Origin: a virus
Taxonomy: Duplodnaviria > Heunggongvirae > Uroviricota > Caudoviricetes
Virus record (IMG/VR): IMGVR_UViG_2740892218_000001
Span: 1-20,634 of that record
DNA length: 20,634 bases
Direction: 5' to 3' (one strand)
Shown here piece by piece: positions 288 to 19,818 of this stretch. The translations under genes and the position numbers were made by a program. The notes beneath the pieces were generated by a model. That model made no database searches and had not been told where the DNA came from. It saw nothing but the letters and a program-made list of their open reading frames with translations. Within the stretch, counting starts at the first letter, position 1. Each line of letters starts with the position of its first letter.

Positions 288-355
288 GTTGGTTTTTCTC
301 CACGGATTTACTGACAACCGAAGCCCTGACTGTTCCCGCAGTTGGGGCTTCAACT

Positions 356-1325: not shown

Positions 1326-1892
1326 TCAGTGGAAGTTACCAGAGTGAAACACACGAGTCCCGTGCTCAGCAAGCGCACGCAAACCAGCCATATCTACGGA
1401 ACTATCAAAAACAACCGGAACACATGAGCGTTGTTTAATAAGACTATTCAGGTTAGTTACGGCAGATCTAGCATCAGCAACAACGATATAGATATCTCTT
1501 GCGATCTCTTTAAAATCAGCAGAAGCTTCTTTGAATACCGATTTCATTGCCCCTTCAAGTCCTCTCAATTGATGCTCTATCAATCGAGATTTTTCTGGTT
1601 CAATGATAGACAACACATTGTCTACATTTTCATCGGTAGCGTTTGCAAGAACACGATAAGCATATTTCAGCATTCGAGACAATTCTTTAATCGAAGACAC
1701 CGCCTCATGAAGCTCATCATTGGTCCGTTCACTGCTGAGCGAGGATTGATGGTAAGCGTGCTGAACATTATCAGTGACAACCACCTCACAACTGAACGCA
1801 GAAGCTTGCTGTAATAGCAAACCTATTGCGACCCCAGCTTTGGCAGTGTTCAAGCTAAACATTTCATCAATCCCATTAGTCTCATTGCTCAT
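1326..1892 (-). CDS. Hypothetical 188-aa protein, upstream partner of the YafO-like toxin; no family recognised
   Basis: ATG at 1892 (MSNETNGIDEMF...) preceded by AAGGAGG with a 5-nt spacer; the track's TTG start at 1922 would include that RBS. Its TGA stop lies inside the RBS of the downstream toxin gene (8-nt gap), indicating translational coupling. Contains an R-x4-H motif (RALAEH) near the C-terminus. Confidence 0.6.
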   Translation of the reverse strand: MSNETNGIDEMFSLNTAKAGVAIGLLLQQASAFSCEVVVTDNVQHAYHQSSLSSERTNDELHEAVSSIKELSRMLKYAYRVLANATDENVDNVLSIIEPEKSRLIEHQLRGLEGAMKSVFKEASADFKEIARDIYIVVADARSAVTNLNSLIKQRSCVPVVFDSSVDMAGLRALAEHGTRVFHSGNFH

Positions 1893-1918
1893 ACAAACCT
1901 CCTTCTTATCGGAGATTA

Positions 1919-1959
1919 TCAATAGCTATGCATCTATTGAATACACGCTATGCTCAATA
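1919..1959. promoter_or_regulatory. Candidate operator: TCAATAG-N8-CTATTGA inverted repeat centred on ATGCAT, plus a third TCAATA half-site and a GCTATGC direct repeat
   Basis: Read directly: tcaatag (1919-1925) / ctattga (1934-1940), tcaata (1954-1959), gctatgc at 1925-1931 and 1947-1953; sits 27-67 bp upstream of the 188-aa gene start in the divergent intergenic region. Confidence 0.3.
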
Positions 1960-2063
1960 ATTCTACGTCACGTGATATCATTATGCAACCATCGTTCTAT
2001 CACCAGTAGATGATGCCTCTCCATACATCATCTGGTATCCTGCACAAAACTAAGGAGGTTGGT

Positions 2064-2453
2064 GTGAAGCGATTTCTTGCTGCTATGTTCTTATTCATAT
2101 CTTTTGGGGCTACAGCAGAGTGCTGGGTCGTTGGAGATATGCGCGGAATAAGCTATTCAGAACGCAATAATTTCCATCCGGTAGAAGATGGTTTTAGTGG
2201 AACATTCACCATTAAGACAAGCGGTGAAGATGCCAGCATCACATATTCTGGTACAGATGCGGGCGGCATGGCTTACAAAGCATTGTCTAAAAACTCCATC
2301 ATAGGAATCGGCGCGAATGGCGAAACTCAACGCGTTATCGACTCATGGGTAATACATCCTACTGGAACAGTTTTAATGTCAAAAACCATTTCCGGTTATG
2401 GAAATATGGATTCAACCAAAGCTTTTGTTGGAAAAGTAAAAAGAAAATGTTAG
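2064..2453 (+). CDS. Small secreted protein of unknown function (about 129 aa, N-terminal signal peptide), divergent from the toxin operon
   Basis: AGGAGG at 2053-2058 then GTG at 2064; VKRFLAAMFLFISFGATAEC looks like a Sec signal peptide (basic n-region, hydrophobic core, ATA-E cleavage context); mature part is Gly/Ser/Thr-rich with Cys near both ends. The upstream part of track ORF 2010..2453 overlaps the RBS. Confidence 0.55.
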   Translation: MKRFLAAMFLFISFGATAECWVVGDMRGISYSERNNFHPVEDGFSGTFTIKTSGEDASITYSGTDAGGMAYKALSKNSIIGIGANGETQRVIDSWVIHPTGTVLMSKTISGYGNMDSTKAFVGKVKRKC

Positions 2454-2477
2454 CGATTGAATCCAATTTCCCATACG

Positions 2478-4388
2478 TTACTGCTGTGTTGCCTCAGTAG
2501 CAAACAGCGGCCTGACGGCATTTGCAGCGTTACTTAACGCTCTTTCATAGGCTGGTGTTCCAGCTTTAGTGTTTGCCAGACGTAAGAGCGCATTCCTTGC
2601 TGCTTTGGACTCGTACAAGCGCATGATTGCACCGAAACCAGCCTCAAGTCCCAGTGATACACCAAGGGTTGCAGTTGCGCCAATCGTTCTAATCCTGTTA
2701 GCTTGCGATTGTCCTGTCTGTGTTACTACATTTGCGGCGTCCGACCTTGCTGTTTGCTGTAGAACTTCATGAAGAGCATCAAGCTCTTTCATGTGTCTCC
2801 CACTGAATATAGTGTTATAGATCTGACCGTCAGATTGCGACTTCAACTTATTTAACTCGGTAAGAAATTTTGTTGGCGAGTCTCCTGCTTTTTCTGCAAT
2901 CTTGCTGATATAAGCAGCACGCATAGCGTTCTTTCCATCTTCACTAAGAGCAGGCCATATCCTCTTAATATCTGATGGTTTTCTGCTGAATACAACGCTG
3001 TTTATTAGCTCTGGAGTAAACTCTTTTTTAGCTTTGTTGAGATTATTCGCAATCCTTTTATTGAGAACTTTATTGAAGACGTTGGAGTAGTCAGAGTTTG
3101 CTTTGACGTATCTGGCGGCCTCTCCAGCCCCCAAATACCGCGCTGCGTTATTCCTCAAATCTGCCCCCATTGCCCTCTCCACGGCATCAGTTGCGGCTTT
3201 CGCGCTATTAGGAAAAACCATGGCATCTCCCTGAATACTTTCCCTCAAGGCTGACCGCAACTCTCTCAATAGACCAAAATCTATATCTGGTTTAGCAAGT
3301 TCTTCTCGCAAATCGGATAACCCGCGAATCAAATCCTTATTTGCCACTTTCCCAAGCCTGTTAGCTCTGGTAAGTACGTTGTCGATAACCTTAATAGATT
3401 TTGATGTGTCAACAGGTGTGTCTCCCATTTTGGTTGTAATGTCTTCAATAACGCTTCCGGCCGAATCCTTCCTTGACTTCAGAGAACCATACAGATCGTC
3501 AACAACAACTGATGGGCTATATTCACCATATTTCTCAAGCTGTTTTTTAACTAGCTGACTTCTTTTTGCATATTGCTCAGCTCGCTTTGAGCCTGTTCCC
3601 AGCAAAGCCCCCTCAGCATCCTGAGTAAGACCACGAGTGAAAGCATTTTTCGGCGGGATTACATCAGATGTCATTGGTGTCACGCCCATCGATTCTGATG
3701 TGGCAATTTTCTTCGCCACTTCTGGTGCAATATCACCTTTAAAGGCAGTTATTCCACGCTCAAGCCCTTTTGCAACAGTATTAACAGCACCACCTGTTAG
3801 CATGCCAACACCTATATCTGTTGCCAGTTTTCCCGCATCATTTTTCTCACTGTTTGCGGCGAGCGATCCGACTGCGTTTTCTGCCAGAAGACGGGCTGCG
3901 CCTTGAGTAATTCGACCAGCAAGTGTTGGCGCCTGAGTTGAAGCGCCGCCAACGCCAACAGTAGTCAGGTAAGGCAATGCCTCCGCAAACACCCTACCTT
4001 CTGTCGTTTGTGGAGTCAGAGCACCTTGCTGAAGTCCAAACGCCTGCTCTAATCCCTGAGTTGTTACTCGTGGCGCTGGTTGATATGTTCCATCGCCAAT
4101 ACCGAGTTTACCGCCAGCCCATGCCGCCGCGCTTGTTACAGCATCGGCAACTGATGCTGGTATATTTGCCACATTTACACCAGCCTGCACCAGTCCGCGA
4201 CCAGTTTCTTTTACTGCTTCGCCGAGGTCAGACATAAATCCATCTTGCTGTTCTACAGGCTGCTTTTGGTTTTGAGTTGGTTGATTACTGGAGGACAGAA
4301 TCTGAGCGATGCGACGTGCTCCCTCAGTATCACCAGCAGCATCAGCATTCCTTAACGCCGTCATCAATTGTTCACGACTATAAGCCAT
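2478..4388 (-). CDS. Ejection (internal) protein, P22 gp16-like, 636 aa
   Basis: Position (last of the 4-10-26-14-7-20-16 block), size, and TAATG stop/start overlap with the upstream gp20-like gene; Ala/Gly-rich composition typical of ejection proteins. Confidence 0.75.
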   Translation of the reverse strand: MAYSREQLMTALRNADAAGDTEGARRIAQILSSSNQPTQNQKQPVEQQDGFMSDLGEAVKETGRGLVQAGVNVANIPASVADAVTSAAAWAGGKLGIGDGTYQPAPRVTTQGLEQAFGLQQGALTPQTTEGRVFAEALPYLTTVGVGGASTQAPTLAGRITQGAARLLAENAVGSLAANSEKNDAGKLATDIGVGMLTGGAVNTVAKGLERGITAFKGDIAPEVAKKIATSESMGVTPMTSDVIPPKNAFTRGLTQDAEGALLGTGSKRAEQYAKRSQLVKKQLEKYGEYSPSVVVDDLYGSLKSRKDSAGSVIEDITTKMGDTPVDTSKSIKVIDNVLTRANRLGKVANKDLIRGLSDLREELAKPDIDFGLLRELRSALRESIQGDAMVFPNSAKAATDAVERAMGADLRNNAARYLGAGEAARYVKANSDYSNVFNKVLNKRIANNLNKAKKEFTPELINSVVFSRKPSDIKRIWPALSEDGKNAMRAAYISKIAEKAGDSPTKFLTELNKLKSQSDGQIYNTIFSGRHMKELDALHEVLQQTARSDAANVVTQTGQSQANRIRTIGATATLGVSLGLEAGFGAIMRLYESKAARNALLRLANTKAGTPAYERALSNAANAVRPLFATEATQQ

Positions 4389-5773
4389 TACTGCCCTCCG
4401 AGATATTTGCTAATTAATTCGTCATCGGACAATTGCTGTTGAGGTTGGCTATCTCCATAACTTGAGGAAAGAAAACGTTTTGCCGCAGAGTTCAATGATT
4501 CACCCTTCTTAACATCCATCCCCATGATGTTTCGGTTGCGATCAGATTGTCCTGGGCTACCGTTTGCACTCATCCACTCTGACCTAAACTCGTTGAACTT
4601 CGCGTTATTACTTTCCATTTTTGCCATACCCCTTAACCATCGAGCCATGACCATTGGATTATCCGTTTCGCTTGGAATGCCTTTCCTTGCAAACTCAATA
4701 TCCTTATCTGATGCAGGGCCGGGAGGGAGAAGCTTGGTTGCCTGCGCATTGGCTAGTTGGTTGAATCTAATCCGCATATCTCGGAGGTAGTTATCTTGCC
4801 CCGTAAGCTTAGAGAACATATTTTCAGCGTTACCGAACAAACCAGGAGTTGGCTTCTCCTTCTCCAGCGTGTCAGCGAGCGTTGTCATTGAATCGGCAGC
4901 ATTACGACTAGCTGCCGCATCACCTGCTGATTTTTCTATAGCCTTTTCCATGTTCACTGATAATTTTGGCGCTGCATTAATAAGTTCCTCGGCCTTTTTT
5001 TGTGCCTGTTGTACTTCAAAACCGAATTTCTGCTTATCAAGTGCCAGTCTTTCTGCTGCAAGTCCGTGTCCGGTCATTGCAGACTGATAGGAAAGGTTTT
5101 GCCCCCTAATAGCCCTCGCATTCGTCATGTCATTATTGCGAATGGTTTCGTTAATTCTTTGCTGCTCCTGCTGACGACCAATCATCTTATCCTGATAATC
5201 CAGCATTTTATCCGGGCCAACAGCCCCTAGCGTCATAGTAGTCAGCATGTGTGATAGCTGCTCTGGATTCTGGATACCTGTCTGAATCATCCAGTCAGCA
5301 TTCGCCCCCACGCGATTTAACCTGTCCTTGTTGTCAGTAATGAATTTACTGTAGGCTTCCGGTCCCTGAGAAAGAGCGACGTTAGCCCTCATGGCTAAAT
5401 CGCCCATATCGTTGCGTTGCTGCTCATTAAGACCGGAAAACGCCTGTTGTGCCTGCGCAACAAACGCTGGATTTTCCTGGGCAAACTTAAATAGTCCCGA
5501 TGGATCACCAGAAGCCCATGCATCAGCGTGAACCTTATTGAACGCACTAATAGCTTTCTGTTGCTGTTCCTGATTGTAAATATCAGCAACTCCAGCCAGA
5601 CCACGTAACGCGGTCAGACCAACGTTATTTGCACCTGAGCGAGCCAGTTCATTGTTTTCGCGGATCAGACCAAGCGTTGCGTTAATGTCGCTTGCCTTTG
5701 GTGCATTCTCGTTTTGCGTACCGATGCCAGCCAGAAACCCACCAGAATTAATACCCTGTTGCCACGTAGCCAT
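4388..5773 (-). CDS. Ejection protein, P22 gp20-like, 461 aa
   Basis: Position and size match P22 gp20 (about 471 aa); conserved gene order; tight coupling with neighbours. Confidence 0.75.
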
Positions 5774-5782
5774 GATTACCCC

Positions 5783-6475
5783 TTAAAACAACGAGCCAAG
5801 CAGACCAAGACCAGCACCGATACCAGCACCCCACGGAGTTGATAGCTCGAGAGCACTGGCTATGCCACCACCCAAAAGCGCACCGGATGCAGCACCACTA
5901 ACCCCCTGCTGCAATGCTGACGGTCGGTTGGCGTTTGCCGCAGCCAGCGCCGCGCTTTGCTGTGAAATCTGACTCATGTTGTTGGCATATGTTTGCCCGG
6001 CGTTTGCCTGCCCCTGAAGAGCGCCAAGACCGATATTTGCCAGGTTGTTGTAATTGTTCATTTGTCCAGATAGCCATTGCTGACCAAGCGTTGGTGCGAT
6101 TGTTGCTAACTGATTACTGGTTGCGGTGGAACCCAATCCACCTGTTGCTTCCGCTGCCGCCAGACTCTGATAGCGAGCCTGACCTGCAAGGTCTTTATAC
6201 TGCTGAGAGTTGTAATACTGGTTAAGCGCCTGACCTTGCCCTTCCAGAGACGATAAGTTCTCGAGGCTGCCGACATACTTATCAGCCAGAGGAGTAAACG
6301 GCTTCAGGTTGTTCATGATGGTGTTGAACTGCTGATTTTGCAGGTCTGCGGCATACTTCTGAGCTTCTGCGGCATACTTTGCGCTTTTATCAGAACTGCC
6401 ACCTTTCCCGCCTTTTTCAGGGCACCAAGGTTCCTCGCCGCGCAGTTTTCTGCCCAGCTTAAATGCATATAACAT
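5783..6475 (-). CDS. Ejection protein, P22 gp7-like, 230 aa
   Basis: Size and position match P22 gp7 (229 aa); Gly-rich hydrophobic C-terminal segment. Confidence 0.75.
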   Translation of the reverse strand: MLYAFKLGRKLRGEEPWCPEKGGKGGSSDKSAKYAAEAQKYAADLQNQQFNTIMNNLKPFTPLADKYVGSLENLSSLEGQGQALNQYYNSQQYKDLAGQARYQSLAAAEATGGLGSTATSNQLATIAPTLGQQWLSGQMNNYNNLANIGLGALQGQANAGQTYANNMSQISQQSAALAAANANRPSALQQGVSGAASGALLGGGIASALELSTPWGAGIGAGLGLLGSLF

Positions 6476-19662: not shown

Positions 19663-19738
19663 TGGTGCTGGTTAACGGACTTGAACCGCTACCCATTCGC
19701 TTACAAGGCGACTGCTCTACCATTGGAGCTAAACCAGC
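19663..19738 (-). tRNA. tRNA-Thr (anticodon UGU), 76 nt with encoded CCA
   Basis: Folded by hand from the minus strand: perfect 7-bp acceptor stem (GCTGGTT/AACCAGC), U8, 4-bp D stem (GCTC/GAGC) with a GG-containing loop, anticodon loop CTTGTAA, T-arm AGCGG-TTCAAGT-CCGTT, discriminator A, CCA. Confidence 0.75.
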
Positions 19739-19743
19739 ATGTT

Positions 19744-19818
19744 TGGCGGGGCAGCGTGGACTCGAACCACGATAAGAAGGTTAACAGCCTTCCGTAATGA
19801 CCTTTATACGACTGACCC
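19744..19818 (-). tRNA. tRNA-Asn-like (anticodon GUU), atypical and possibly a pseudo-tRNA, 75 nt
   Basis: Perfect anticodon stem (GAAGG/CCTTC) with loop CTGTTAA and perfect T-arm (CGTGG-TTCGAGT-CCACG); anticodon and T loops match E. coli tRNA-Asn as recalled; but one U-C mismatch in the acceptor stem and only a 3-bp D stem. Confidence 0.5.

Follow-up and report, generated by a model that had tools for sequence, protein, structure and literature searches.

A gene of the phage 434 Hex family in the sieA slot of a P22-like phage, a candidate periplasmic superinfection-exclusion factor

What is encoded by the small gene that takes the place of sieA in a group of P22-like phages, and what might it do for the prophage that carries it? 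The question is raised here by a 129-amino-acid (aa) open reading frame (ORF) in a stretch of viral DNA of 20,634 nucleotides (nt) (IMG/VR record IMGVR_UViG_2740892218_000001). This whole stretch, hereafter the window, covers the late genes of a phage or prophage that is P22-like (Lederbergvirus-type). The gene turns out to belong to the family of phage 434 Hex, which is known but has hardly been studied; within it the gene falls into a clade of its own and is set in a different genomic socket. Hex itself is the only member of the family that has been studied. As shown below, the protein is probably an exported beta-barrel, and the reading that we favour is that of an exclusion factor acting in the periplasm.

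The first-pass annotation of the window described a 129-aa ORF with a GTG start and an AGGAGG ribosome-binding site, lying opposite to the structural genes and divergent from a toxin operon. The coordinates, the start and the ribosome-binding site are all confirmed (see the table). The gene is on the plus strand, whereas the head, tail and ejection genes, like the YafO-family toxin gene and the upstream partner of the latter, are on the minus strand. The reading frame is open further upstream, to an ATG at position 2010 that would yield a 147-aa product. This start was rejected because it lacks a Shine-Dalgarno sequence and because the homologues start at the GTG position. Among 88 copies of the gene gathered from IMG/VR contigs, public assemblies and phage genomes, this codon is GTG in 69 and ATG in 18. 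The annotation of phage Emek features the same 129-aa frame (orf129).

Is the ORF a functional gene? All 88 copies, representing 42 nucleotide alleles, are intact and free of internal stops. Their dN/dS ratio (Nei-Gojobori) is 0.25 overall, 0.17 in the part encoding the mature protein and 0.50 in the first 18 codons, which specify the signal peptide. Of 5426 complete E. coli genomes, 147 (about 2.7%) carry the gene, which in every case is chromosomal and labelled "hypothetical protein". Relatives with 95-96% protein identity are carried by the Salmonella phages Emek and ST-35. That this is a real gene under purifying selection is strongly supported. The fact that nothing but the "hypothetical protein" annotation was found could be taken as a hint of a chance ORF or of a decaying, non-functional remnant. 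However, the intact copies with their dN/dS of 0.17-0.25, the confident AlphaFold model (see below) and the existence of 117 family representatives, nearly all of 120-150 aa and with invariant residues in common, speak against this explanation. Its probability is negligible and we consider it already refuted by the conservation.

No family had been recognisable by eye at first pass. This verdict does not stand, since the protein belongs with phage 434 Hex in phrog_2651, which the 129-aa protein matches in PHROGs with E 3e-60 and Hex with E 1e-58. A tblastn search against phage genomes aligned 100% of the query, at 28% identity, with the 434 "repressor protection protein", Sf6 gp38 and matches in HK446, HK633 and Sf101. 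The 434 match is the gene located just downstream of cI, that is, hex. BLASTP of the 129-aa protein against Hex gives E 3e-13, bridging family members match both proteins, and hhalign aligns the two clades over 127 columns with a probability of 99.7% (E 6.7e-27). Because these three comparisons and the common PHROG agree, the homology to Hex is secure.

The two proteins share their size, a signal peptide followed by an x-C-W start, and an F-V-G-x-V-x-x-C end. Both are encoded by lambdoid or P22-like temperate phages, in slots of prophage-expressed exclusion genes. However, 434 Hex forms a different clade at a different locus. Genes of the Hex clade always follow directly after an imm434-type cI (210 aa), on the PRM transcript, as established for 81 of 90 loci by an automated test and for the rest by inspection. 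The 129-aa gene instead occupies the sieA slot and converges on gene 16. The placement next to cI is a feature of the hex locus, not of the protein family. One P22-like IMG/VR contig of 41 kb (648276644_000012; L068, L155) carries both a 434-type Hex gene by cI and a paralogue in the sieA slot. Two further genomes have both paralogues, on separate contigs.

The family is otherwise anonymous. The 117 relatives were found, at E <= 1e-3, by an exhaustive hidden Markov model (HMM) search of 1.8 billion representatives, while a word-indexed homology search returned close relatives only (23 clusters). Members with a named source are from Serratia, Pantoea, Trabulsiella and Cronobacter, each of them annotated as "hypothetical". 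The 129-aa protein has no match in Pfam or NCBIfam, no PADLOC-DB family at E <= 1, and no meaningful match in sequence and profile searches of the PDB. Pfam returned no domain for 50 diverse family members, only scattered noise, and no informative Pfam architecture for four long multi-domain HMM matches (P0111, P0120, P0127, P0128). A scan of genome contigs with the alignment of close relatives detected a single locus, in Symbiopectobacterium; a scan of viral contigs with the Serratia member P0032 found nothing.

The 129-aa gene is convergent with the homologue of P22 gene 16, which is the position of sieA in P22; in P22-like prophages this slot lies between genes 16 and 9. The suggestion that it fills a slot equivalent to that of sieA can now be made precise. 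A 34-nt "socket", TGGTATCCTGCACAAAACTAAGGAGGTTGGTGTG, which comprises the leader, the Shine-Dalgarno sequence and the GTG, is 100% identical to the leader of P22 sieA through the start codon, and the similarity ends at the next codon. This leader is present in 61 of the 88 Hex-like loci, behind at least 8 different upstream contexts; 14 of the 88 keep the whole P22 upstream region, with the tmnt hairpin and the annotated PsieA promoter. No SieA homologue is found at any of the 88 loci (tblastn with P22 SieA matches the P22 locus only). It is strongly supported that the 129-aa gene replaces sieA at the GTG and that the two genes are mutually exclusive. The upstream neighbours vary between mnt alone, Emek orf149/161 and a gene for a Rap1a-like secreted protein. 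On the other side, a convergent gp16 homologue, of one of several divergent types, adjoins the gene in about 70 of 80 IMG/VR loci, and the 24-nt spacer between the two stop codons is common, with the 3' end of gene 16, to nearly all Hex-like loci.

In P22, 85 bp upstream of sieA are enough for exclusion (PMC10883804). The recombination breakpoints of the various upstream contexts fall just 5' of a candidate extended -10 element, TGgTATCCT, at the beginning of the socket. Transcription is predicted to start near position 2048, downstream of TGGTATCCT. In the subgroup where mnt, the Rap1a-like gene and the 129-aa gene follow one another in the same orientation, the arrangement is consistent with co-transcription from Pmnt.

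Replacement of sieA does not mean that a SieA-like protein is made. SieA, 164 aa long, spans the inner membrane several times and has an FxRYPxEAxxFNK motif on the cytoplasmic side (PMC10883804). The 129-aa protein occupies the same position behind the same leader, Shine-Dalgarno sequence and GTG, and like SieA it appears to be targeted to the envelope. However, it bears no sequence similarity to SieA, lacks the FxRYPxEAxxFNK motif, and is predicted to be a cleaved soluble barrel with no transmembrane (TM) helix after its signal peptide.

An IMG/VR scan for the 34-nt leader reveals that the exchange is not limited to these two genes. At least 118 loci were found (L248-L365; the leader was also noted at L247:4675-4897), in which at least 11 unrelated small cassettes start at the leader GTG. 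These encode Hex-like proteins (at least 27 loci), two families of 107-109 aa with TM segments plus a coiled coil (at least 24 and at least 15), a 75-aa and a 62-aa two-TM protein (at least 9 each), SieA (at least 8), a 116-aa three-TM protein and a 149-aa membrane-anchored protein (at least 6 each), a 99-aa secreted protein and a 140-aa soluble protein (at least 5 each), a 103-106-aa TM protein (at least 4) and a YobH-like 68-aa protein (at least 1 locus). Among the matches listed, a hydrophobic segment (TM or signal) lies at the N-terminus in 10 of the 11 cassette families, which points to envelope proteins. Those with a PHROG match are of "unknown function", and the YobH-like cassette is the only one with a Pfam match among the matches listed. 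Many cassettes end at a common 3' boundary, CCATCCRTGGC, just before the stop codon of gene 16. Since unrelated envelope cassettes follow the same leader, the slot behaves as an exchange hotspot, presumably for lysogen-expressed proteins. SieA alone among these has been characterised, and the Hex-like gene is the sole other with a studied homologue. No paper describing this leader hotspot of P22-like phages was found in the literature.

What, then, is the nature of the Hex-like protein? Its N-terminus, MKRFLAAMFLFISFGATA/EC (the slash marks the predicted cleavage site), consists of a basic n-region and a hydrophobic core, with A-x-A before residue 19. We searched for this signature in 99 full-length family representatives, taking as hydrophobic core a Kyte-Doolittle 9-residue window with a mean of at least 2.2, located before the first cysteine. 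A core is present in 99 of 99 and a net positive n-region in 93. The residue two positions before the conserved cysteine (-1 relative to the cleavage site) is A, S, G or T in 93 of 99, and that four positions before it (-3) is A, S, V or T in 83 of 99, in agreement with the A-x-A rule of signal peptidase I (SPase I). The residue just before the cysteine is mostly E, S, Q, N, A or D (E, Q, N, D, K or T in 68 of 99). This predominance of charged and polar residues means that there is no lipobox, and indicates processing by SPase I rather than by SPase II. The Sec signal peptide that was thought likely for the window protein is thus predicted, with a non-lipoprotein signature, across the whole family.

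The higher dN/dS at the N-terminus (0.50, against 0.17 in the mature part) goes with retained hydrophobicity, which we count in favour of export. Toxicity of full-length Hex when overproduced (PMC3564112) is counted likewise, and so is the fact that the experimentally recovered Hex fragment "sHex" begins exactly at the predicted cleavage site (see below). The two allele groups of the 129-aa gene differ mainly in the signal peptide, which reads MKRFLAAMFLFISFGATA in one and MKLIIAMAFxVFSFSVSA in the other (L005-type), the mature domains being about 90% identical. This places a mosaic junction inside the region encoding the signal peptide. The junction correlates with what lies upstream, either the sieA leader or Rap1a.

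The mature domain of 111 aa is rich in Gly, Ser and Thr (13.5% G, 10.8% S, 9.0% T), as described at first pass, with a grand average of hydropathy (GRAVY) of -0.28 and cysteines at mature positions 2 and 111. It had been guessed to be beta-rich, and the structure prediction then called for has been run: AlphaFold returns an all-beta, eight-stranded barrel with a pLDDT (predicted local distance difference test) of 86. The bracketing cysteines noted earlier are present and conserved, Cys20 being invariant in 99 of 99 representatives and Cys129 aligned with a cysteine in 97 of 99; G28, W95 and G123 are also invariant or nearly so. Since the first and the last strand should lie side by side in a closed barrel and each bears a conserved cysteine, a Cys20-Cys129 disulfide is likely, and this bond would staple the barrel shut. 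No hydrophobic segment follows the signal peptide. In short, export and the barrel fold of the 129-aa protein are highly probable. The Hex family as a whole is very probably periplasmic, because the signal peptide and the first cysteine are found in all 99 representatives and the last cysteine in 97.

Foldseek searches of the PDB and BFVD gave nothing below E 1e-3, and only generic eight-stranded barrels. The likeness to PliC/MliC, to lipocalins and avidins, to the barrel domains of Neisseria NHBA, TbpB and HpuA and to the Cap15 barrel is one of fold class only, with no sequence relationship. The MliC/PliC lysozyme inhibitors were considered and rejected in view of the lack of a Pfam MliC (PF09864) match or of specific structural similarity.

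A small exported barrel made by a prophage might also reside in the outer membrane, as a Lom/Ail-type beta-barrel, or be a Cor/Llp-type lipoprotein, and in either case mask a phage receptor. This is very improbable for the 129-aa protein. Its mature domain is short and hydrophilic, Lys, Arg and Asp residues occur on either face of its last strand, and none of the 99 representatives ends in Phe or Trp, most of them ending in the cysteine or 1-3 residues later. Outer-membrane barrels of the OmpX, Ail, Lom, PagP and OmpW types were rejected because the protein lacks the C-terminal aromatic beta-signal, is below the mature size of about 150 aa, has strands charged on either face where a hydrophobic outer belt would be expected, and has no Pfam match to outer-membrane proteins. 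Lipoprotein receptor blockers such as Cor and Llp were rejected in the absence of the lipobox [LVI][ASTVI][GAS]C, with A, S or G at the position two before the cysteine; the mostly charged or polar residue preceding the conserved cysteine is also at odds with a lipoprotein.

How does an exported barrel fit with what is known of Hex? Salmonella lysogens of λimm434 exclude P22 while hex- lysogens do not, hence the name "heterologous exclusion", and in lysogens hex is co-transcribed with cI from PRM (PMC3564112). Exclusion is reported for this combination of prophage and host only. A quite different role has been proposed for the protein, namely that it acts in the cytoplasm, where it would shield repressors of the P22/434 type from RecA-stimulated autocleavage and, by lowering induction, stabilise the lysogen. 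In support, phage release by λimm434 lysogens is 30-fold higher if they are hex-, provided that the host is recA+ and not recA-. Purified sHex inhibits the RecA-stimulated cleavage of both repressors (434 and P22) in vitro, and it partly complements in trans, by 7-fold (PMC3564112). It may be added that the window belongs to a P22-like phage and that the 129-aa protein is homologous to Hex. However, it must be noted that sHex consists of the 61 residues E43-N103 of a 158-aa ORF. E43 is residue +1 after the predicted cleavage site (...TSANS/ECW), and N103 lies at the end of the first half of the mature domain (strands 1-4). As the N-terminal half of an eight-stranded barrel, sHex is unlikely to be natively folded; it was made without the signal peptide and was active at micromolar excess.

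Two further points argue against a cytoplasmic shield for the repressor. The signal peptide is found in all 99 representatives and the terminal cysteine pair, typical of extracytoplasmic proteins, is conserved. Moreover, the genes of the sieA-slot clade are associated with gene 16 and the sieA leader rather than with a repressor gene. We therefore hold repressor protection to be an improbable function of the 129-aa protein. The words "signal", "periplasm" and "membrane" do not occur in the text of the Hex study (PMC3564112), where export was never considered. Because of the family-wide signal peptide and cysteine pair, a periplasmic location is the more economical one, and the cytoplasmic mechanism put forward for Hex needs re-testing. 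A literature search on Hex, the "repressor protection protein" and an exclusion hotspot in P22-like phages turned up that study (PMC3564112) and the SieA paper only.

Our preferred reading is that the 129-aa protein is a prophage-expressed periplasmic superinfection-exclusion factor. We give this chain of steps, taken as a whole, about an even chance. The gene would be transcribed in the lysogen from PsieA, or from the minimal extended -10 element in the leader. The product would be exported by the Sec pathway and cleaved after Ala18. Oxidation by the Dsb system would then tie the first strand to the last through Cys20 and Cys129, and the mature protein would be soluble in the periplasm. There it would bind a component needed for delivery of the incoming phage genome, and so block entry of the DNA of P22-like phages. 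Such a block would resemble that imposed by SieA, but from the periplasmic side. The likeliest targets would be the ejected proteins that make up the trans-periplasmic conduit (gp7, gp20 and gp16), a cell-wall hydrolase carried by the virion, or an envelope factor of the host. The exclusion-factor reading gains independent support from the homology to Hex, with its P22 exclusion phenotype, together with the precise replacement of sieA.

Podoviruses have to assemble a conduit for their DNA across the periplasm, from proteins that they eject. Precedents exist for small periplasmic proteins that act against incoming genome entry. T4 Spackle (Sp) and P1 Sim are both made by the resident phage with a cleavable signal peptide. 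Spackle is helical and inhibits the gp5 tail lysozyme. We take these two proteins, unrelated in sequence to the 129-aa protein, as a working analogy for the proposed mechanism.

Several observations weigh against this proposal. Export, the disulfide, expression in the lysogen and exclusion itself are all deduced from sequence. A strict sigma-70 consensus scan of positions 1800-2600 returned no promoter, so that we infer the extended -10 element from conservation only. Identity to Hex is only 28%, and it may be doubted that function is conserved between the Hex clade and the sieA-slot clade. The contig with both a cI-linked Hex and a sieA-slot copy implies that the paralogues are not simply redundant, and suggests that they are not redundant in specificity. 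The generic barrel matches give no pointer to a particular ligand or target. Finally, in one subgroup the gene has a Rap1a-like neighbour, of a type VI secretion system (T6SS) immunity family, which could mean protection against something other than a phage.

This last point leads to the main rival of the exclusion factor, a periplasmic lysogenic-conversion protein with a non-phage target. The barrel might serve as an inhibitor of, or an immunity protein to, cell-wall toxins (T6SS amidase effectors, colicin-like bacteriocins, host lysozyme), or bind a small ligand to the benefit of the host. The Rap1a neighbour hints at such a function, as does the fold class, while no sequence evidence for it was found; we rate it as possible, if on the whole unlikely. 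The subgroup in question, with 85-88% identity, has the gene 15 nt downstream of the Rap1a-like gene (L005-L008, L079-L091; about 5650-5985 in L005). The Rap1a-like protein is secreted and matches PF18602 (T6SS amidase immunity) and phrog_3870, and the gene order is mnt, Rap1a-like, 129-aa gene, all in the same orientation. An orphan T6SS immunity gene on a prophage would deserve interest for its own sake.

Another observation concerns the gp16 ejection protein, among the candidate targets of an exclusion factor. Its C-terminal 150 aa or so (window 2478-2950) are 90-95% identical between two gp16 types that are 14-38% identical over the first 250 alignment columns, and this shared C-terminal variant travels with the Hex-like cassette. 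Mutations that escape SieA map to the C-terminal parts of P22 gp16 and gp20. Taken together, the escape sites and the linkage of the gp16 C-terminus to the cassette are suggestive, but may reflect physical linkage alone.

The table gives the coordinates of the gene, of its parts and of its surroundings.

Table. Features of the 129-aa gene and of its genomic context (window positions, except for phage 434 hex)
Feature	Position	Strand	Remarks
sar antisense RNA	288-355	+	adjoins arc; Rfam 95.6 bits
Arc gene	356-580
Mnt gene	608-859
YafO-family toxin gene, 149 aa	868-1317	-	Pfam 3e-22
198-aa upstream partner of YafO-family toxin gene	1326-1922	-	phrog_8416; no Pfam match
Candidate extended -10 element TGgTATCCT	2033..2041	+	inferred by reading the sequence only
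34-nt socket	2033..2066	+	leader, Shine-Dalgarno and GTG as in P22 sieA
Shine-Dalgarno AGGAGG	2053..2058	+	5 nt ahead of GTG 2064
Hex-family coding sequence, 129 aa	2064..2453	+	GTG 2064-2066; stop 2451-2453 (stop included)
Signal peptide, residues 1-18 (V/MKRFLAAMFLFISFGATA)	2064..2117	+	predicted SPase I cleavage after A18
Mature domain, residues 19-129	2118..2450	+	predicted eight-stranded up-and-down beta-barrel
Cys20 codon	2121..2123	+	second mature residue, start of strand 1
Cys129 codon	2448..2450	+	last residue, end of strand 8
Spacer between the 129-aa gene stop and the convergent gene 16 stop, 24 nt	2454..2477
P22 gene 16 homologue (ejection protein gp16, 636 aa)	2478..4388	-	convergent neighbour; defines the slot
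P22 gene 20 homologue	4388-5773	-
P22 gene 7 homologue	5783-6475	-
Two tRNA genes	19666-19738, 19747-19818	-	near right end, upstream of lysis genes
Phage 434 hex	L003:2429-2905

The toxin pair of the window forms an insertion between mnt and the sieA slot, and comprises the YafO-family toxin and, ahead of it, a protein of 188-198 aa in a position at which one would expect a short antitoxin of the YafN type. At least 55 complete E. coli genomes have this pair, at 97% identity. It was seen next to a Hex-like gene in the window only; the 80 IMG/VR loci with the Hex-like gene all lack it. In E. coli 19SZHZ803Rt, the same YafO module is followed by the leader and its GTG, and then, instead of the Hex-like gene, by an unannotated 62-aa two-TM ORF.

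Two broader claims may be joined. The members of the Hex family, 434 Hex included, would be exported periplasmic barrels that stop P22-like phages, through binding to a part of the ejection-protein conduit or at another envelope step. The sieA slot would be a plug-and-play hotspot in which a 34-nt leader drives at least 11 unrelated, uncharacterised cassettes, mostly targeted to the envelope. We put this combined claim forward tentatively, as one that is less likely than not. If it is true, Hex-type barrels would constitute a second exclusion system at the sieA locus, mechanistically distinct from SieA. The cytoplasmic "repressor protection" would be an artefact of an unfolded half-barrel devoid of its signal peptide, and the sieA slot would be a reservoir of undiscovered superinfection-exclusion mechanisms.

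The exclusion genes of prophages shape which phages infect Salmonella, Shigella and E. coli, and this has a bearing on phage therapy and on horizontal gene flow. About 2.7% of complete E. coli genomes contain the 129-aa gene, as do many P22-like prophages of Salmonella, yet it is still called "hypothetical". The link to Hex gives it a testable function, while the signal peptide and the cysteine pair seen throughout the family make possible a direct test of the published Hex mechanism. More generally, the leader and start codon form a socket for a dozen interchangeable envelope cassettes, and so provide a defined place in which to look for new exclusion mechanisms against podoviruses.

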